Source: Ignavibacteriales bacterium (GTDB taxonomy: Bacteria; Bacteroidota; Ignavibacteria; UBA10030). Taken from it: DNA of 64,000 nt. The notes below the pieces were generated by a model. It was not told where the DNA came from, ran no database searches, and worked only from the letters and a program-made list of their open reading frames with translations. The first letter of the stretch is position 1. Each line of letters begins with the position of its first letter. Shown piece by piece: positions 44,846 through 54,055 of this stretch. The translations under genes and the position numbers were made by a program. The stretch covers positions 25,126-89,125 of the forward strand of contig JACPSI010000042.1 of NCBI GenBank assembly GCA_016193365.1, given 5' to 3'.

Positions 44846-44912
44846 GTCATTGCGAGCGTTGTACAGCGAAGCAATCTCACCAGGACGACTCCGCGTCGAG
44901 CCTGTCAGATGT
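44846..44912. repeat. Copy A of a ~70-100 nt inverted-repeat element (homolog of 47832-47928)
   Basis: gtcattgcgagcg...agcgaagcaatctcaccagg...cgcgtcgagcctgtcagatg aligns segment-by-segment with gtcattctgag...agcgaagaatctgattccagg...cgctcgactcagaatgac at 47832. It overlaps the last codons of the DUF4153 gene. Confidence 0.45.
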
Positions 44913-46275
44913 ATCCGAACACAGGCGGAAAGACGATAACGACGATGGCAGCCCACACGGCGTAGACGGGCAAGTAGTTCGTCTGCCATCGCTCAAGGTC
45001 CGTGAACGATCCACGTTCCCTCAAAAAGCGGATGTACAGAACGGCCGACCATGCGAGATTGACGAGGAGGATCACGTTAACCCCCAGAGCGGCCACTCGG
45101 TTAGGGGTGAAGCCGAACTCAGTAATGCGCGCGGAAATCGCCCACAGCGCTACCGCGTCGACCAACAACGCACTGACCACCAGCACCACCTGCATGACAT
45201 CGAAGGGGCCGGCAGGCATTCGGGCATCCCGCGCGGAAACGGAATAGAGCAGCAGGCCCAGGACGACAACCAGGAGAAGGTCAAAGGCGATGAGGACCTC
45301 GCGTTCGATGTCCAGGCCGCGCCCGGTCCAGATCAAAGTCGCTAAGAATGTGACCAGCAGCGCGGCGAAGAAGGGGGTGAAGAGTCGCGTCAACACGGGA
45401 GCCATGTTTTCGATCACGCTCTGCTTTGCCTCCACCAGCCAGGAAGCGACGAGGACGGCCCCGGCAGCCCCGCACGGGATCAGCCACGATTGGATGAACC
45501 ACTCGGCGTCGATGCCGATGGTTTTGAACATCATCATGAGGAACGCGGTGAGCACACCGCCCCCGAGCGCGATCAGGACGTAGTAGATGAACAGCTCGCC
45601 GGAGAATCGAATGAAGTCCATGCGGCCGGCGACCTCATTCCATCGGCTTCCTGCGTATGCAACACCGACTGCGACCCAGAGGGCGATCGGCAAGTGCAGT
45701 GCTGTCAGTGACTCAGTGGAGCCGGGCGACGCGAAGGGATAAACGTTGGCGAACACACCCGCGGCGACGATCGGCGCCGCCAACCACGGAACCGTCTTGG
45801 CGCCGAGCCGGCGCTTCCAGATGAAATAACCGGTCAGGAGCGGCAGTACGAAGAGACTCAGGTTGCGTGCATAGAAGCTCTCATTCTCCTTAAGGTCCAT
45901 CCCGAAAAGTTCGGGCAGCTTGATAAGCATGGCCGCAGCGACCGCAAGAAAAAAGGCGACGAATGCATCCGACCGCACTCCTGCTCCCTGCTCCCTCGAA
46001 TCCGACGGAAGAACGACGAGCTGTTTCCAGAGGCGGTCTGAGTGCTCGCGCGCGAACTCGCGTGAGAGGGCATCGAGCGCCCCCATGCGTTTCACCGCCA
46101 CAAGAAACGCCTCATCAGGGACGAGTCCCGCGTTCATGAGTCCCGCGATCTGTTCGCGCAGATGGTCTTCCAGCTCCGCCACATCAACAGAATGGATCGC
46201 CTGCCGGCGAAGGAGATAGCTCCGCCACTGGTCGATCTGCTCCTCGAGCGTTACTGTATTCGCTGGTGTCGTCAT
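44905..46275 (-). CDS. DUF4153 domain polytopic membrane protein
   Basis: 456 aa with about 10 TM helices and a cytoplasmic N-terminal region. It is markedly GC-richer than its neighbours and immediately downstream of a PadR regulator. Confidence 0.68.
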   Translation of the reverse strand: MTTPANTVTLEEQIDQWRSYLLRRQAIHSVDVAELEDHLREQIAGLMNAGLVPDEAFLVAVKRMGALDALSREFAREHSDRLWKQLVVLPSDSREQGAGVRSDAFVAFFLAVAAAMLIKLPELFGMDLKENESFYARNLSLFVLPLLTGYFIWKRRLGAKTVPWLAAPIVAAGVFANVYPFASPGSTESLTALHLPIALWVAVGVAYAGSRWNEVAGRMDFIRFSGELFIYYVLIALGGGVLTAFLMMMFKTIGIDAEWFIQSWLIPCGAAGAVLVASWLVEAKQSVIENMAPVLTRLFTPFFAALLVTFLATLIWTGRGLDIEREVLIAFDLLLVVVLGLLLYSVSARDARMPAGPFDVMQVVLVVSALLVDAVALWAISARITEFGFTPNRVAALGVNVILLVNLAWSAVLYIRFLRERGSFTDLERWQTNYLPVYAVWAAIVVIVFPPVFGYI

Positions 46276-46278
46276 AGC

Positions 46279-46674
46279 TCAGGCTCCTTGTGGAAGTGGT
46301 GTTGCAAACGCCGCGGTGCCAACCGGAATGAAAATGGAGAGCGCTTTCCAGATGCCGCGCAGCGTCGCGTCAACGGCCTGCCACTGCCGCCGTTCATCGG
46401 TGAGATGCGCCTTGCCCCTGGACGTGATGCGGTAGTACTTGCGACGGCGGCCGCTCCCCGCGACCTCCCATCGCGCCTCGACGTAGCCGAGTCGCTCGAG
46501 CCGATGGAGAACGGGATAGAGCATCCCGTCCGTCCACTCCATACGACCTCCGGACAGTTCTTGAACTCGCTTGATAATGGCGTAGCCGTAGCTGTCCTTT
46601 TTGGCCAGGATTGCCAAAACGATAGGGGTTGAGGAAGCGGCTATCAGGTCCTTGTTGAAGTCCATGGTTTCCAT
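46279..46674 (-). CDS. PadR-family transcriptional regulator
   Basis: Winged helix (ILAILAKKDSYGYAIIKRVQELSGGRMEWTDGMLYPVLHRLERLGYVEARWE). The start was chosen at METMDF..., because the longer ORF to 46755 adds a hydrophobic non-PadR leader. Candidate operator ACATA-N11-TATGT at 46721-46743 upstream. Confidence 0.8.
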   Translation of the reverse strand: METMDFNKDLIAASSTPIVLAILAKKDSYGYAIIKRVQELSGGRMEWTDGMLYPVLHRLERLGYVEARWEVAGSGRRRKYYRITSRGKAHLTDERRQWQAVDATLRGIWKALSIFIPVGTAAFATPLPQGA

Positions 46675-46929
46675 GCGTCGCGCTGGGTTAGTGAATTCGT
46701 GCGATTCTGCATGAGGCAATATACATAGAAGTGTTAGGTATGTCAAGCCTTGCATGTTTTTTTCTTGAGAACTCCGAAGTGACAGTTAGAGACGATGAGC
46801 TCGACAGGTATTTCGAGGCGGTACTAGGAGAGAGATTGGGAGATTGCCGAAGCCTACGTTCAGTATTGTTGCATCGGGATCCATTGGCACGTTGTTATGA
46901 AAGAAGGTGTGGAGAAGCCTTGTCGGGGT

Positions 46930-47634
46930 TCATTTACTTGACATCCACTGGTGTGTCATTCGAGCTAGATCACTCAGGACATCCCCATCCGTTTTTCCCG
47001 AGCTTTTCAGCACATGAAACGAATGGTCCGCGCCGTCGATAACATGTAGCGTTGCGAATTTTCCCAGTTTGTCCACTACAGGCTTCAACAGCGACATCTC
47101 CGCAAAATCGTCTCTCGTGCCCTGCAGAAACAACATCGGCACCGTAACTCTTGAGAGATGTTCTGCCCGCTCAATCGAAGGCTTGCCAGGCGGGTGCAGA
47201 GGGAATCCGAGGAAAACGATTCCACGCACATGAGGCAGCGGCTCCTCAGCTGCGGCGCTTGAGGTCATCCTTCCGCCAAAAGATTTCCCTCCTGCAAACA
47301 ACGGAAGTCCCGGTGCCAGCTTTGCCGCTGTTTCAACAGCTGAGCGAACTGTCGCATAAATAACCGGTTTTGGATCGGGACGTTTGCCTCCCTGCTCCAT
47401 GTAAGGAAACTGGTAACGGAATGTGCCGATTCCATGTTCTGCCAGTTTATGTGATATGGCCTCGAGGAATTTCTGCCGCATACCGGCTCCCGCGCCGTGC
47501 GCGAGGACGAGAAGGGCCTTGGCGTTGTCGGGGAGCATGAGGATTGCGCTGACGGTGCCAACAGATTTGGAGGCAATAAAAGACGTGTTGGTGATTTCAG
47601 TTGAAAGCATGTCGGAAAGTAAGAAGAAATCCAA
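46930..47634 (-). CDS. Alpha/beta-hydrolase-fold protein (COG3571/KANL3-like predicted hydrolase)
   Basis: 234 aa. LLVLAHGAGAGM, nucleophile-elbow-like GGKSFGG, and a C-terminal DH motif. Confidence 0.72.
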   Translation of the reverse strand: MDFFLLSDMLSTEITNTSFIASKSVGTVSAILMLPDNAKALLVLAHGAGAGMRQKFLEAISHKLAEHGIGTFRYQFPYMEQGGKRPDPKPVIYATVRSAVETAAKLAPGLPLFAGGKSFGGRMTSSAAAEEPLPHVRGIVFLGFPLHPPGKPSIERAEHLSRVTVPMLFLQGTRDDFAEMSLLKPVVDKLGKFATLHVIDGADHSFHVLKSSGKTDGDVLSDLARMTHQWMSSK

Positions 47635-47669
47635 CGAAGTCGAAGATGAGTAATTGACACACCCCTACA

Positions 47670-47779
47670 CCCCTCTCTCAACGCTCATTCCCACACACGA
47701 GAGGGGACTTTTTAGAGCTAAGGAAAAACGAGCGTAGGAATTCCCCTCTGTGTGATGGAATGTGTACAGGAGAGAGGGG
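47670..47779. repeat. Pair of ~37-bp hairpin-forming units in mutually inverted orientation
   Basis: cccctctctcaacgctcattcccacacacgagagggg (47670-47706) and cccctctgtgtgatggaatgtgtacaggagagagggg (47743-47779). The reverse complement of the second aligns with the first. Each has 7-8 bp terminal stems, cccctctc/gagagggg. Confidence 0.45.
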
Positions 47780-47831
47780 ATAAAGGGGTGTGTGCTTTGT
47801 CTTCACCCCGAAATCTCGGTGCAACTAGATT

Positions 47832-47928
47832 GTCATTCTGAGAGAAGCCCCGAAGGGGCGGAGCGAAGAATCTGATTCCAGGTATTAATCAGATTCTTCG
47901 TCTCGCATAAGCGCTCGACTCAGAATGA
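47832..47928. repeat. Copy B: ~97-nt element with 11-bp terminal inverted repeats enclosing two internal hairpins (candidate MITE/REP-like element or structured RNA)
   Basis: gtcattctgag ... ctcagaatgac terminal inverted repeats. Internal hairpins are gccccgaaggggc and cgaagaatctgatt-N-aatcagattcttcg. It is homologous to 44846-44912. Confidence 0.5.
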
Positions 47929-48017
47929 CATACTATTTGTGCACCTCGATTAAAGTCCCGCGGAATATGCTCCACGCACAAACCCGTCGATTTCGACCCC
48001 GCCCCACATCCGCGATC

Positions 48018-48212
48018 TTACTTGCCTTTGCTCAACCAAAGCGAAAGAAAAAGACGATTCATCCCGAGCGGAGACGAGGGATGGTTTTCGTTAAACTCGT
48101 TTAGCCGCATCAGCATTGCGCTGACGTTTCCGGAGGATTTGGAGGCGAGGAAGGTCGTGTTTGTTATTTTGGGTGATGACATGGTTGTTCTCTGTCCGTA
48201 GGGACACGGCAT
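48018..48212 (-). pseudogene. Decayed N-terminal fragment of an alpha/beta-hydrolase paralog
   Basis: The 64-aa ORF MPCPYGQRTTMSSPKITNTTFLASKSSGNVSAMLMRLNEFNENHPSSPLGMNRLFL aligns with the N-terminus of the 46930-47634 hydrolase (MLSTEITNTSFIASKSVGTVSAILMLPDNAKALLVLAHGAGAGMRQKFL), then stops. Confidence 0.5.
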
Positions 48213-48225
48213 GCCGTGTCCCTAC
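48198..48225. promoter_or_regulatory. 28-bp perfect palindrome upstream of ligD (candidate operator)
   Basis: gtagggacacggcatgccgtgtccctac is a perfect two-fold symmetric site 74 nt upstream of the chosen ligD start. No U-tract follows on either strand. Confidence 0.45.
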
Positions 48226-48298
48226 AAAGCGTAACCCCACAATAACAAACAATTCCAACAAAGCAAATCGGCGCCATTCTCATTATATTTGCAATCCA

Positions 48299-50623
48299 AT
48301 GGCGCGCACATCCCAATACGTCAAGGTTGGCAAACGAACTGTCGAACTCTCGAATCTCAAAAAAATCCTCTTTGCGGATGACGAGATCCTGAAGGCTGAG
48401 TTAATCCAGTTTTACCTCAAACTGGCTCCTACCATCCTCGCACATATCAAAGGCCGTCCCCTTTCCGTAGTCCGCTATCCGGATGGTGTCGGCGGGGATT
48501 CGTTTTTCCAAAAAAACCGTCCCGACTGGGCTCCTGCCTGGATGGACCATGCCGAGTTGGGCGACAAGGAAAAAGGCAAAACCATCGACTACATGATTGC
48601 CACCGAGGAGGCCTCGCTAGTCTTTCTGGCAAACCTTGCATGCATTGAACTGCACCAGATGCATTCGCGATCGCCGAATTTCGACAAGCCGGATTATTTT
48701 GTTGTCGATCTCGACCCGCCGGAGAGTTTTCCGTTTTCCAAAATCGTCGGCATCGCGTTCGAATTCAAGGAACACCTCGAATCGTTCGGCTATCATCCAT
48801 TTGTGAAAACGACGGGTAAGAAGGGGCTGCATATCGTCTCGCCGCTCGAACCTAAGTGGAGTTTCGACGAGGTCTTTGAAGCAGCAAAAGCCATCGCCCA
48901 GCCGTTCGTCGACAGCCACAAATCGACAACGACGCTGCACATCAAAAAAGAGTACCGCAAGGACAAGATGCTGATCGACATCTACCGCAACCGCACGTTT
49001 CAAACAATCATTTCTCCGTATAGTGTACGCGGAAGCAGAGGAGCTCCGGTTTCGACTCCATTGAATTGGGAAGAACTCGAACATTTGAAATCGCCAGCCG
49101 AGTTGAATCTGGAAACCGTTCCCGAACGAGTCATTGCAAATGGGGACCCGTGGGAAGCTATCGGCGCTTATGCAACCAGTTTGCACACCGACCGCAAATC
49201 CAAACGGCCAAAACCTCTTGAAAAAGAGAAAGCTGTCGAGTCTCTCAAAACATATGACAAGAAAAGGAGCTTTAACAAGACGCCCGAACCCGGCCCAAAA
49301 GTTCCCGCGGGAAAGGGCAACTCTTTTGTTGTGCATCGTCACCACGCATCGCGACTTCATTACGATTTGCGGCTGGAAAAAGGAGGCACACTGAAATCGT
49401 GGGCTGTCCCCAAAGGACTCCCGCCGCGTCCGGGCATTAAACGGCTTGCCGTCAACGTGGAAGACCATCCTATGGATTATCTCACCTTCGAAGGAAAGAT
49501 TCCGAAAGGCGAATACGGCGGAGGTGACGTGTGGGTGTTTGCGCTGGGCAAATATGTCATTACAAAAGAAAAGAAAGACGGATTCTATTTTCGACTTCAG
49601 AGCAAAGAGATCAACGCGGAGTATCGCACATTCCCGACGGACGGCAAGAACTGGCTGCTGGAACGACTCGACAACCCGCAAATCGATTTTCTGAGAGACA
49701 ATGTTGAGTATATGCTTTCAGAAAGCCGCGAAAAGGTGCCTACTTCAGGCGATTATCTTTATGAAGTGAAGTGGGACGGAATTCGCGCAATGATCTCGCT
49801 GGATGAAGGAGTCGTGAAAATCCGCAGCCGCAATAACAAAGACATCACCAAGAGTTTTCCCGAATTGCTCATCCCCGACAAAGCATTCCGTGCGACCAAT
49901 GCGCTTATCGATTGCGAAATAGTTTGCCTGGATAAGTCGGGAAAACCCGTGTTTAAAGATGTCATCAACCGCATGCACCAAACGACTGAAGGAGCGATTG
50001 CCCGCGCGAGAGCAAAATTCCCCGCAGTCTGTTATGTTTTCGACTGCCTCTATCTCGACGGCCGCGCTATTGTGAACGAACCGCTCACACGGCGGCGTGT
50101 CTGGCTTAAGGATGTCGTTCGCCCGGATACGCCGTATCGAGTCAGCGAGGTCGTTGAAGAAGGCGAGGATCTTTTTGAGGCTGCAAAGCAAATGGGGCTT
50201 GAAGGGATCATGGCAAAAGAGAGGAACAGTCAGTACGTCGTCGGCAAGCGCAGCTCTTACTGGCTGAAAGTCAAAACCAGGCAAACGGCGGATTGCGTGA
50301 TCATCGGCTACACGAAAGGGAAAGGAAGCCGCGACTCTGCTTTTGGTGCGCTCCACCTTGCTCAGAAGAAGGACGGCGACCTTGTGTACGTCGGCAAGGT
50401 CGGTACCGGCTTCGATGACCGGATGTTGAAATCGATTTACCTGGAGCTCAAAAAGTTTCGGAAAATCAAAAAACCCATCAAGCAAAAAACCCTCGACGAT
50501 GTTGCGACCATCTGGATCGAACCAAAGCTGTTTTGTGAAGTCCAATACGCCTCCCTGACCAAAGACAAGATGCTTCGCGAGCCTGTGTTTTTGAGGTTGC
50601 GGCCGGATTTGTCCAACGAGTGA
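48299..50623 (+). CDS. ligD: ATP-dependent DNA ligase LigD, three-domain (polymerase/primase - phosphoesterase - ligase)
   Basis: Pol domain (FFQKNRPDW, VVDLDPPE, KTTGKKGLHIV), PE domain (FVVHRHHASRLHYDLRLE), and ligase domain (EVKWDGIR KxDG motif, then OB fold). The start was chosen at MARTSQYVKV (ATG 48299). The longest ORF from 48161 uses an alternative start and overlaps the palindrome. Confidence 0.9.
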   Translation: MARTSQYVKVGKRTVELSNLKKILFADDEILKAELIQFYLKLAPTILAHIKGRPLSVVRYPDGVGGDSFFQKNRPDWAPAWMDHAELGDKEKGKTIDYMIATEEASLVFLANLACIELHQMHSRSPNFDKPDYFVVDLDPPESFPFSKIVGIAFEFKEHLESFGYHPFVKTTGKKGLHIVSPLEPKWSFDEVFEAAKAIAQPFVDSHKSTTTLHIKKEYRKDKMLIDIYRNRTFQTIISPYSVRGSRGAPVSTPLNWEELEHLKSPAELNLETVPERVIANGDPWEAIGAYATSLHTDRKSKRPKPLEKEKAVESLKTYDKKRSFNKTPEPGPKVPAGKGNSFVVHRHHASRLHYDLRLEKGGTLKSWAVPKGLPPRPGIKRLAVNVEDHPMDYLTFEGKIPKGEYGGGDVWVFALGKYVITKEKKDGFYFRLQSKEINAEYRTFPTDGKNWLLERLDNPQIDFLRDNVEYMLSESREKVPTSGDYLYEVKWDGIRAMISLDEGVVKIRSRNNKDITKSFPELLIPDKAFRATNALIDCEIVCLDKSGKPVFKDVINRMHQTTEGAIARARAKFPAVCYVFDCLYLDGRAIVNEPLTRRRVWLKDVVRPDTPYRVSEVVEEGEDLFEAAKQMGLEGIMAKERNSQYVVGKRSSYWLKVKTRQTADCVIIGYTKGKGSRDSAFGALHLAQKKDGDLVYVGKVGTGFDDRMLKSIYLELKKFRKIKKPIKQKTLDDVATIWIEPKLFCEVQYASLTKDKMLREPVFLRLRPDLSNE

Positions 50624-50954: not shown

Positions 50955-52271
50955 ATGGAAACTGAACAACGAAAAAAAGTAGGCCTCATCACAGCCACCT
51001 CACTCGTCGTGGGGAACATGATTGGCTCCGGGCTCTTCATGCTTCCCGCTGCGTTGGCAGCATACGGAGGCATCAGTTTGGTGGGATGGGTTGTTTCCGG
51101 TCTCGGAGCGATGTCGCTTGCAATTGTCTATGGCTGGCTTGCAAAGCTCCATCCAAAAACCACCGGCGGGCCGTACGCATACACCTACATCGGGATGGGC
51201 GACTTTGCGGCTTTTCTCGTTGCGTGGGGATACTGGATTTCTGTGTGGTGCGCGAATGCCGCGATCACCGTTGCGTTTGTCAGCTACTTGAGCGCATTCG
51301 TTCCTGCTCTTGCCACCGACCCGTCGTTTGCAATTGGGACCGGCCTCGCTGCAATTTGGCTTCTCACGTGGGTCAACACGCTGGGAATCCGCGAAGCGGG
51401 CGCTGTTCAAGTTCTCACAACGATACTCAAACTTGTTCCACTTCTGCTCATCGCCGTTGCGGGCCTTTTCTATATTCGCTTTGAGCATTTTACACCGTTT
51501 AACCTGAGCACCGAATCCTCCCTCGGTGCCGTCACCAGCACAACAACGCTGACGCTGTTTGCGTATCTCGGACTTGAGTGCGCGACGATTCCGTCGGAAA
51601 ACATCGCGAACGCGCAAAAAACTGTCGCGAGAGCAACTCTTCTTGGTACTTATCTTACAACGGCGGTTTATATCCTGAGCACGATTGCGGTCATGGGACT
51701 GATTCCGCCGGATCTGCTGCGTACTTCGCAAGCACCCTTCGCTGATGCCGCCGCGTCGATCTGGGGAGAACCGGCAAGATACCTGGTTGCCGCAGCAGCT
51801 GTCATTGCAACTTTTGGAGCGCTCAACGGTTGGATTCTTGTACAGGGGCAGGTCCCTTTTGCGGCCGCCCGCGACAGGCTGTTCCCGGCTGTGTTCAGCA
51901 AAGAAAACAAAAAAGGCGTTCCCGGCATCGGGATCGTCATTTCCAGCGTACTGGTCTCCCTCCTTATGGGCATGAACTTCACCAATACTCTTGCCGACAC
52001 ATACAAGTACATGATCTTGCTGTCGACACTCACCGTGCTCGTACCTTATGTTCTTTCGATGGCCTCTTATGCCATCATCATTACAAAGGACAAAGCGCCG
52101 AACAGAAGCGTGTGGCCAAGGCTCTTCGTTGCTTTTCTTGGTTTTCTTTTTTCCCTCTGGGCAATCGTCGGGTCGGGCCGGGAAATTGTCTATTGGGGTT
52201 TCATCATGCTCATTGCAGGTATCCCTTTTTATGTCGTCATGAAATTCAAAAAAGAAAAAAATTCTTTGTGA
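50955..52271 (+). CDS. APC-superfamily amino acid permease (basic amino acid/polyamine antiporter-like)
   Basis: 438 aa, 12 TM. N-terminal GLITATSLVVGNMIGSGLFMLPA consensus of APC transporters. Confidence 0.85.
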   Translation: METEQRKKVGLITATSLVVGNMIGSGLFMLPAALAAYGGISLVGWVVSGLGAMSLAIVYGWLAKLHPKTTGGPYAYTYIGMGDFAAFLVAWGYWISVWCANAAITVAFVSYLSAFVPALATDPSFAIGTGLAAIWLLTWVNTLGIREAGAVQVLTTILKLVPLLLIAVAGLFYIRFEHFTPFNLSTESSLGAVTSTTTLTLFAYLGLECATIPSENIANAQKTVARATLLGTYLTTAVYILSTIAVMGLIPPDLLRTSQAPFADAAASIWGEPARYLVAAAAVIATFGALNGWILVQGQVPFAAARDRLFPAVFSKENKKGVPGIGIVISSVLVSLLMGMNFTNTLADTYKYMILLSTLTVLVPYVLSMASYAIIITKDKAPNRSVWPRLFVAFLGFLFSLWAIVGSGREIVYWGFIMLIAGIPFYVVMKFKKEKNSL

Positions 52272-53152
52272 AAACGACCTGCCATTCCGAATTTGGCAAA
52301 ATCAAAACGGTCGTTATCAAAAGAGCGACGAACGCATTTGTCAGTGAACGACTTCTTGAGGCTCAGTGGCGCGACCTTCATTTTCTGGAAAAACCTGATT
52401 TGGCTCAATCAGCAAAGGAATTCGACAGCTTCGAAACGATCCTGAAGACAAACGAAGCAACATTACTTTATCTCCCGCGTGACGAGAGTGTGACCATCGA
52501 TTCCATTTATTGCCGCGATGCTGTCATCACCACCGACCATGGAATGATCCTTTGCAATATGGGAAAGGCCTCCAGAATTCATGAGCCGGAAGCTTTGCAA
52601 CGGTTCCTTGAAGAACATCAATTTGAAGTGTTGGGACGCATTCAGGCTCCGGGAACCCTCGAGGGGGGAGATTGTGCCTGGATTAATGAGAACACGCTGG
52701 CGGTCGGTTTATCATCAAGAACAAATGCAGAGGGGATAAGACAATTGAAACGAATGCTGACTCCGTTTAATATTGATGTTCTTCTCGTTTCCCTGCCGCA
52801 TTACAAAGGCCTGCAGGATGTGTTTCACCTCATGTCGGTGTTCAGCCCGGTCGACACCGACCTTGCCGTTGTCTACCCGCCATTGATGCCCTTGGATTTT
52901 CGCAACGAGTTGCTTCGGAGGGATTTTCGGCTTATCGAAGTGCCTGAACGCGAGTTCGAATCCATGGGATGCAATGTTCTGGCAATCGCGCCGCGCAGAT
53001 GCGTAATGATCAATGAAAATCCGGCAACAAAAGCAGCGCTTGAGAAGGCAGGGTGTGAAGTGTTTGAATACGCAGGCCGTGAAATAAGCCTCAAAGGTGG
53101 CGGCGGGCCGACATGCCTGACGAGACCCATTGACAGATACGTGCATGAGTAG
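52268..53152 (+). CDS. Amidinotransferase-superfamily hydrolase (dimethylarginine dimethylaminohydrolase / arginine-deiminase / citrulline-hydrolase-like)
   Basis: About 294 aa. C-terminal nucleophile context GGGGPTCLTRPI is typical of the guanidino-group-modifying fold. The likely start is GTG at 52268, overlapping the permease stop (gtgA/tGA). The ORF-track N-terminal extension from 51830 overlaps the permease out of frame. Confidence 0.68.
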   Translation: MKTTCHSEFGKIKTVVIKRATNAFVSERLLEAQWRDLHFLEKPDLAQSAKEFDSFETILKTNEATLLYLPRDESVTIDSIYCRDAVITTDHGMILCNMGKASRIHEPEALQRFLEEHQFEVLGRIQAPGTLEGGDCAWINENTLAVGLSSRTNAEGIRQLKRMLTPFNIDVLLVSLPHYKGLQDVFHLMSVFSPVDTDLAVVYPPLMPLDFRNELLRRDFRLIEVPEREFESMGCNVLAIAPRRCVMINENPATKAALEKAGCEVFEYAGREISLKGGGGPTCLTRPIDRYVHE

Positions 53153-53200: not shown

Positions 53201-54055
53201 ATGAGAGCAATTTGGAAAGGCTATATTCGTTTTTCACTCGTCACCATCCCTGTGCGCGTGTACAACGCCGTCGACACGGAGCAGAAGATCAGCTTCAACC
53301 AGCTCCATAAAGAAGACAACGGCCCGATCGGGTACGAGAAGAAATGCAAAAAGTGCGGAAAGGCGGTACCCAACGAAGAGATCGTAAAGGGATACCAGTA
53401 CGAACCGGACCAGTATGCCATCGTTGAAAAAGATGACCTCGAAAAAGTGAAACTGAAAAGCACAAAAGTCATCGAAATCGAGGGCTTTGTAAACGCAAAG
53501 GAAGTCAGTCCGATGCTGTATGAATCTCCTTACTTCGCCGGCCCGGATGGAGCTGTCGCGGGAAAGGCGTTTGGCTTGTTGAGTCAGACGTTGAAGGATT
53601 CCGGAAAACTCGGCATAGGAAAAGTCGTTTTGCGCGATCGCGAAGATGTTGTCCTCATAGCTCCGATGGAAGGCGGGATCGTTCTCTACAAGCTGCGTTA
53701 TCCAAGCGAAGTTCGCAATATGAAGGAAGTGCCTCAACTTGACGGACAGGTTGTTGATAAGAATCAGCTGAAACTTGCACGGAGTCTTGTCGATTCGATG
53801 GCGACAACGATGAAAAAGCTGGACATGAAGGACAAATACCATGATGCTCTCAAAGAAATGATCGAAGCCAAGATCGAAGGCAAGGAAGTCGTGACCGTCG
53901 AGGAGGAAGTGAAGCCGGTTGTCGATATCATGTCCGCTCTGAAGCAAAGCATCGACCAGGCAAAATCACACCGCAAGCCGATGGAAAAAGCGAAAGGCAC
54001 GAAGAAAAAAGAAGCGATGAAACCCACAAAGGTGCGAAAGGCAAAAGCGGTTTAA
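53201..54055 (+). CDS. ku: Ku protein (NHEJ DNA end-binding)
   Basis: 284 aa. MRAIWKGYIRFSLVTIPVRVYNAV Ku core start, with a lysine-rich basic C-terminal tail. Confidence 0.9.
   Translation: MRAIWKGYIRFSLVTIPVRVYNAVDTEQKISFNQLHKEDNGPIGYEKKCKKCGKAVPNEEIVKGYQYEPDQYAIVEKDDLEKVKLKSTKVIEIEGFVNAKEVSPMLYESPYFAGPDGAVAGKAFGLLSQTLKDSGKLGIGKVVLRDREDVVLIAPMEGGIVLYKLRYPSEVRNMKEVPQLDGQVVDKNQLKLARSLVDSMATTMKKLDMKDKYHDALKEMIEAKIEGKEVVTVEEEVKPVVDIMSALKQSIDQAKSHRKPMEKAKGTKKKEAMKPTKVRKAKAV

Follow-up and report, generated by a model that had tools for sequence, protein, structure and literature searches.

A 64-codon open reading frame (ORF) on the minus strand at coordinates 48018 to 48212 of the 64,000-nucleotide stretch of DNA analyzed here (the window), which comes from an Ignavibacteriales metagenome-assembled genome, contains a genuine, non-functional N-terminal fragment of a hydrolase gene that ends at a sharp junction, and is a scar of rearrangement, as a preliminary description of the region had proposed. 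The fragment, hereafter the stub, consists of the ATG of an Abhydrolase_11 gene and the 25 codons after it (MSSPKITNTTFLASKSSGNVSAMLMR; coordinates 48105 to 48182, minus strand), and matches both the complete hydrolase gene that lies beside it and the hydrolases of eight related lineages. The feature is real but ordinary, a recombination scar and not a working gene. The explanation that we favor, to which we give an even chance of being correct, is that the stub is the orphaned 5′ end of a second, diverged hydrolase allele that was joined to the first by recombination with one illegitimate end. It would then illustrate, cleanly and on a small scale, the dated scar that a locus can retain after its diverged versions have recombined.

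The hydrolase stub and its breakpoint

The intact hydrolase gene is located at coordinates 46930 to 47610 on the minus strand, with its ATG at 47610, and has an annotated product of 226 aa that matches PF20408 (Abhydrolase_11; Pfam E 4e-54), is 100% identical to the NCBI MAG protein P0001, and has homologues in the thousands. The alignable N-terminus that the preliminary description had noted in the 64-codon ORF begins at Met11 (the ATG at 48182), which matches the true N-terminus of the hydrolase, and BLASTP comparison of the pair gives 17 identical residues over 25–27 (E 2e-8). In a tblastn search with the hydrolase against the whole 64-kb window the stub (E 1e-4) is the sole match besides the gene itself. 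At the DNA level the two segments form a 77-nt direct repeat (47535–47611 and 48107–48183) with 73% identity and a spacing of 572 nt, and their local alignment scores 51, compared with 17.7 ± 2.2 (maximum 26) for shuffled sequences, so that the similarity is significant in pairwise alignment. A further block of resemblance that had been put forward, GMNRLFL in one translation and GMRQKFL in the other, aligns no better than shuffled sequence (P 0.13–0.59) and is a chance match.

The stub is also related to the N-termini of the hydrolases of seven relatives (58–69% amino acid identity by tblastn, E 1e-5 to 3e-7), and in every comparison with the relatives' hydrolases the homology breaks off abruptly at 48106, immediately past codon 26, without first fading out. 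Further frameshifted remnants were sought as the preliminary description had suggested, using tblastn of the full hydrolase against coordinates 47600 to 48400 (word size 2), blastn (word size 7) against all of the relatives, and tblastx, but nothing was recovered beyond the 26 codons, and there is no additional hydrolase remnant in any frame between 47612 and 48105. The rest of the second gene copy is gone and, as had been described, unrelated hairpin-rich DNA is present in its place. The 64-codon ORF has no Pfam match, and the Pfam domain of the family begins at about residue 31; because the homology stops at codon 26, before the HGAGAG motif, the stub is a fragment and not a member protein of the family. 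The same structure is present in three independent Logan assemblies (L002–L004) built from other sequencing runs of the SRR121133xx series, with a single-base difference (at 48215) across the stub and the insert, and the arrangement is not an assembly artefact.

Beyond the breakpoint the ORF runs on through a tail (LNEFNENHPSSPLGMNRLFLSLWLSKGK, then stop; coordinates 48018 to 48104, minus strand) that has no similarity above that of shuffled sequences and is not hydrolase-derived. The ORF of 64 codons, which is present as originally described, is thus chimeric, with 26 codons from a hydrolase and 28 that read through into unrelated DNA, and is not a gene. The exact 64-aa sequence is absent from a collection of 15 billion proteins, and the ORF is lacking from the orthologous loci of all eight related lineages and also from 80 loci of the GTDB. 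The possibility that it encodes a conserved small protein was considered, and with the ORF absent in relatives and no credible homologue found, its identification as a gene fragment stands. A word search with the 64-aa sequence returned no candidate, although this negative result is weak because the index is non-exhaustive and also missed hydrolases sharing 4–6 words with the ORF. An exhaustive HMMER search gave four matches (E 2e-6 to 2e-4). The proteins concerned, some of TPR_12 type and two others, all have internal repeats, align with different, overlapping parts of the query, and have scores summed over 4–7 repeats; we judge these to be chance matches. Derivation of the tail from a TPR gene was also rejected, as Pfam gives no TPR match at a threshold as permissive as E 10, even when translation is continued past the stop. 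The gene caller in L002 reported the stub ORF as a hypothetical protein; the 64-codon ORF should not be annotated as protein-coding.

The ligD–hydrolase intergenic region

The stub sits at a strand switch, as the preliminary description had indicated, within the intergenic region between the hydrolase and a divergently transcribed ligD gene (coordinates 48299 to 50623, plus strand) that encodes primase-polymerase, 3′-phosphoesterase, and ATP-ligase domains by Pfam. The ATGs of ligD and the intact hydrolase are 688 nt apart, and the stub ATG is 116 nt from that of ligD. The orthologous loci were compared in eight related lineages (L001, L005–7, L008/9, L010, L011, L012/L092, and L093) whose hydrolase proteins are 74–83% identical to the intact one; among hydrolases from outside this species, the nearest is 82% identical. 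In all loci that include the flank, ligD is the divergent neighbor of the hydrolase, and each of the eight lineages has one hydrolase copy, none having two and none having the stub. No comparable extra N-terminal fragment was found in any of these relatives or in 80 further GTDB loci. The hydrolase ATG of the relatives is 75–330 nt from the ligD ATG and follows a conserved core; the stub therefore occupies the position at which the complete hydrolase of the relatives begins, and the intact gene of the window starts 572 nt further on.

The conserved core of about 57 nt (48242–48298) is 88–95% identical to the corresponding DNA of L001, L005, L008, L010, and L011, and is collinear with that of L092. 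Presumably it is the promoter region, and a promoter and terminator scan gave nothing above chance. The sequence TATATTTG at 48284–48291, 7 nt before the ligD ATG, is kept in all of the relatives and fits the Bacteroidetes −7 promoter motif, TAnnTTTG; if it acts as a −7 motif, then the ligD mRNA would be nearly leaderless. Collinearity with L092 is more extensive, and includes the start of ligD (its first ~8 codons), the core, a GTAGGG palindrome, and the ATG.

The 494-nt interval between the stub and the intact gene contains no gene, and is composed of 165 nt and two hairpin repeat elements. The 165-nt segment (47940–48104), which runs from the breakpoint to the first of these elements, matches nothing else in the window and nothing in 94 loci, and tblastx gave only a weak match to L001, which was discounted as chance because it is out of frame with the gene there. 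Next to it is a nested hairpin repeat element with the ends TGTCATTCTGAG ... CTCAGAATGACA (47822–47939), recognized by its inverted repeats (I1 and I5) and its predicted fold, and an element of the same family is present in the same intergenic region of L010, sharing both its ends and its GACGAAG-AATCT motifs. The second long hairpin element (ACACACCCCTACACCCCTCTCTC ... GAGAGAGGGGATAAAGGGGTGTGT; 47657–47793) was identified likewise from its fold and inverted repeats (I2 and I4), and at the equivalent place both L010 and L011 have CCCTCTCC...GGAGAGGG hairpins.

On the other side of the stub, 15 nt upstream of its ATG, is a perfect 28-bp palindrome, GTAGGGACACGGCATGCCGTGTCCCTAC (48198–48225), which is evident in both the fold and the repeats and which forms one long hairpin of ~94 nt together with outer arms at 48158–48173 and 48236–48251. 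In these arms codons 4–9 of the stub pair at 15 of 16 positions with the 3′ part of the conserved core. The core-to-codon pairing is weaker in some relatives, is broken in L001 and L010, and lacks its core arm in L011, so that a pairing of the core with hydrolase codons 6–9 is not conserved across the relatives. Palindromes ending in GTAGGG..CCCTAC are also found upstream of the hydrolase in L092 (98–125) and L093 (1–28), with a variant in L008 (~990–1020), and across the four lineages, including that of the window, their ends are conserved and their centers are different yet palindromic. In L003 a G>T substitution at 48215 breaks the perfect palindrome. Each of the hairpin elements, like the GTAGGG palindrome, occurs only once in the 64-kb window. 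RNA from the intergenic region is predicted to be far more structured than shuffled sequences (z −9.5), and the best Rfam matches between 47400 and 48500 are eukaryotic miRNA models far below threshold.

Relatives have further members of these palindrome families at the equivalent site, which makes the ligD–hydrolase interval of these Ignavibacteriales a hot spot for palindromic elements and, with the scar described here, for rearrangement. REPs have a conserved 5′ GTAG and are recognized by RAYT transposases, and the GTAGGG/CCCTAC palindromes, with their 5′ GTAG, are REP-like. The palindromes around the stub resemble REP and MITE-like repeats in their conserved ends (GTAGGG..CCCTAC and TGTCATT..AATGACA) and in having family members in relatives, but differ in that each occurs once per 64-kb window. 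REP-like elements explain the filler DNA but not the duplicated coding segment.

Divergence and origin of the stub

In a 78-nt comparison the stub is 70.5% identical to the adjacent gene at the nucleotide level and 69–84% identical to the hydrolases of relatives, and the adjacent gene is 69–78% identical to those same relatives. Nearest to the stub is the hydrolase of L092 (84%), and the MS start and the FLASKSSG block are common to both. In 5000 bootstraps L092 was the nearest sequence to the stub in 88% and the adjacent gene was nearest in 0.3%, with L092 nearer than the adjacent gene in 99.5%; because only 78 nt are informative, this affinity comes down to 12 differences as against 23 and may in part reflect shared ancestral states.

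The 23 differences between the stub and its neighbor are distributed 6/4/13 by codon position, and by the Nei-Gojobori method pS is 0.62 and pN is 0.20, with a dN/dS of 0.18. The differences between the stub and other family members are likewise mostly at third positions, and the stub has six unique bases, none of them at codon position 2 and no more than are seen in functional orthologues. When a partial duplicate decaying neutrally from the start was simulated, no more than 3% of runs gave a pN/pS as low as that observed, and no more than 0.3% reproduced pS and pN jointly, whereas a simulation of two selected copies fits the observed pS and pN well. The coding-type divergence, the few unique bases, and the simulations indicate that most of the divergence of the stub arose while it belonged to a working gene, and that its truncation is comparatively recent. 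The preliminary description had called it the decayed remnant of a paralog, and neither term fits well. The 26 codons are intact, with six lineage-unique bases, changes at third positions, and a sharp breakpoint, and are not those of a decayed sequence. As for a copy of the adjacent gene, the neighbor is as distant from the stub as are orthologues from other genera, L092 is closer, and the relatives are single-copy, so that "paralog" is probably wrong.

In the explanation that we favor, two versions of the locus in which ligD and the hydrolase are head to head, with approximately genus-level divergence, would have been brought together in one chromosome by a join with one homologous and one illegitimate end, through homology-facilitated illegitimate recombination (HFIR) or an equivalent mechanism. 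The allele at 46930–47610 would have stayed complete and kept its own hairpin-rich upstream DNA, and of the other allele only the part beyond the illegitimate junction at 48105/48106 would survive. The junction at 48105/48106 would be the illegitimate end, and the conserved core at 48242–48298 is a possible anchor. Sliding identity comparisons along ligD and the intact hydrolase show no switch of the nearest relative, the relatives being 70–89% identical, and a mosaic boundary is not visible in these genes because none of the sampled relatives is close enough.

Both directions of transfer can be considered. The stub and the GTAGGG palindrome may have been imported from an L092-like lineage, with the conserved core and ligD as the homologous anchor, and we lean slightly towards the stub rather than the intact gene as the incomer. 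This is because the ligD and intact hydrolase phylogenies agree, both placing the window as sister to a tight clade with L005 outside, the stub resembles L092, and the stretch from the start of ligD to the ATG is collinear with L092. However, the reverse case, in which the stub is native and the intact gene arrived together with its upstream DNA, is equally compatible with the syntenic position of the stub. Neither a donor lineage nor a close relative with an "empty site" was found in the protein and genome searches, the nearest sequence to the stub being that of L092 at 84%. A search of metagenome contigs with the degenerate pattern ITNT[ST]FLASKSSG[NK]VSA[IM] returned only L092's own contig, and a GTDB scan for a donor or empty site gave one Ignavibacteriaceae locus in which the intergenic region is N-masked. 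A protein search with the LigD N-terminus gave only matches of 75% identity or less, and is uninformative because it missed the known relatives. The stub is most likely inert today.

HFIR is rare where it has been measured. It is defined by a homologous "anchor" at one end and an illegitimate other end (PMC3240628), and has been invoked for displaced gene pieces such as the T6SS effector/immunity orphans of Vibrio cholerae and orphan arrays of Rhs and CDI systems (PMC5361080). As with those orphans, the piece described here would derive from a diverged version of the locus with a conserved flank as its anchor and an illegitimate other end, and it lies beside the complete version in the same orientation. 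Unlike the T6SS, Rhs, and CDI orphans, which are 3′ toxin and immunity modules, it is a 5′ stub of a housekeeping-type hydrolase, has no sign of diversity selection or of repeated events, and is assigned to a mechanism that we infer. It shares with ordinary pseudogene fragments and truncated duplicates a short promoter-proximal piece, the lack of homology beyond the breakpoint, and the call as a hypothetical protein, but differs from them in being undegraded within its 26 codons and in not being a copy of the adjacent gene.

Of the other explanations the one that survives best, although we consider it unlikely, is an old tandem paralog, in which the whole gene was duplicated, both copies were under selection, and the ligD-proximal copy was later deleted or overwritten by hairpin elements to leave 26 codons. 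The coding-type divergence between the stub and the intact gene, their adjacency in the same orientation, and the behavior of the intergenic region as a hot spot for hairpin insertion in relatives are all consistent with this. However, all eight related lineages are single-copy, and because the dS of ~1.3 amounts to synonymous saturation the duplication would have to precede the split of these lineages and be followed by repeated losses. An old paralog also does not predict the affinity for L092, since the stub groups with the L092 orthologue and not outside all of the relatives, and there is no second remnant of the deleted gene body.

Phages and islands that integrate into the ends of genes restore the gene, as do e14 and phage 21 at icd and islands at tRNA genes, and the arrangement here resembles such attachment-site duplications in that two diverged gene ends flank an insert, one fused to the functional gene and the other orphaned. 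The stub could thus be the displaced native end (attL), with the intact gene made up of element-borne codons 1–26 and the native body (attR), and the 494 nt would be what is left of the element. In accord with this, the duplicated segment begins exactly at the ATG, the insert is made of hairpin elements, and an identical 12-nt block (CGTCAGCGCAAT) a few codons before the end of the homology is a possible crossover core. We nonetheless regard this as improbable. In contrast to e14, phage 21, and the tRNA islands there is no integrase or other gene in the interval, which is only 494 nt long, and no second copy of the unit is present in the window or the 94 loci; no shift in phylogenetic affinity is seen between codons 1–26 of the intact gene and its remaining codons, and the CGTCAGCGCAAT block is also the most conserved stretch of the segment across the relatives compared. 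We give a similarly small, if anything slightly smaller, chance to the broader idea that the 572-nt unit, made up of the hairpin elements and a surrogate set of 26 initial codons, is a miniature non-autonomous integrating element that inserts at the 5′ end of this hydrolase gene and restores it with a diverged N-terminus of its own, or that the stub and its long hairpin form a regulatory leader between the divergent promoters of ligD and the hydrolase.

The remaining two explanations we consider very improbable. In one the stub is kept because it is useful, either as an upstream ORF or structured leader for the hydrolase, or with the hairpin at 48158–48251 insulating the divergent promoters; its ATG and 26 codons are intact, the 16-nt arms pair at 15 of 16 positions around a perfect 28-bp palindrome, the predicted RNA structure exceeds that of shuffled sequences, and there is one base difference, within the palindrome at 48215, across four assemblies. 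However, this invariance says little because the four assemblies are of one species and 99.6–100% identical, the stub is absent from all relatives, the core-codon pairing is disrupted in L001, L010, and L011 as described above, and there is neither an Rfam match nor a homologue of the ORF. In the other, which we put at an equally low level, slippage or repair duplicated only the 5′ part of the resident gene and the upstream copy then decayed neutrally, which would give a same-orientation direct repeat beginning at the ATG, but this is opposed by the simulations (P at most 0.03 for the pN/pS ratio and at most 0.003 jointly), by the lack of any excess of stub-specific changes or of any at second codon positions, and by the adjacent gene being so rarely the nearest in bootstraps, and it cannot have been a simple tandem duplication because the DNA between the copies is not hydrolase-derived.

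Neighboring genes and hydrolase–LigD linkage

Downstream of the hydrolase the relatives have restriction-modification genes, a kinase, or PadR or GH3 genes, with the content varying among them, and the site looks like a variable cassette site. In the window this position is occupied by a PadR regulator and an adjacent 456-aa membrane protein (44905–46755), which together form a block with a GC content of 0.60 against a background of 0.50. The different content downstream of the hydrolase among relatives and the high-GC block of the PadR and membrane protein genes mark the locus as recombination-active. Apart from position 48215, all of the differences between the window and L002 and L003 cluster at 46687–46772, just upstream of the PadR core, and include three inserted bases; the long N-terminal extension of PadR in the ORF list is probably not real.

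On the other side of the intergenic region, amino-acid permease and arginine-deiminase-like genes (50955–53152) lie between ligD and Ku (53201–54055), and in L005 ligD is directly beside Ku. In L010 (GCA_964572245.1) the ligD gene is interrupted at codon 60 by an in-frame stop (L010 coordinates 2153–2332) and is called as two genes, and is either a pseudogene or the product of a sequencing error.

An Abhydrolase_11 hydrolase is also found beside LigD or LigD-domain genes outside of the Ignavibacteria, in 14 of the 80 GTDB loci, which were fetched with the hydrolase (L014, L024, L028, L029, L034, L035, L038, L056, L058, L071, L074, L075, L087, and L090). This recurrent linkage suggests that the hydrolase family is functionally connected to end-joining repair, and may be a more useful lead than the stub. 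In two Verrucomicrobiota loci (L056 and L087) the hydrolase is likewise divergent from a full LigD, and in L090 LigD is ~2 kb from the hydrolase. In the Gemmatimonadota and Eisenbacteria loci a primase-polymerase gene is located directly upstream of the hydrolase on the same strand.
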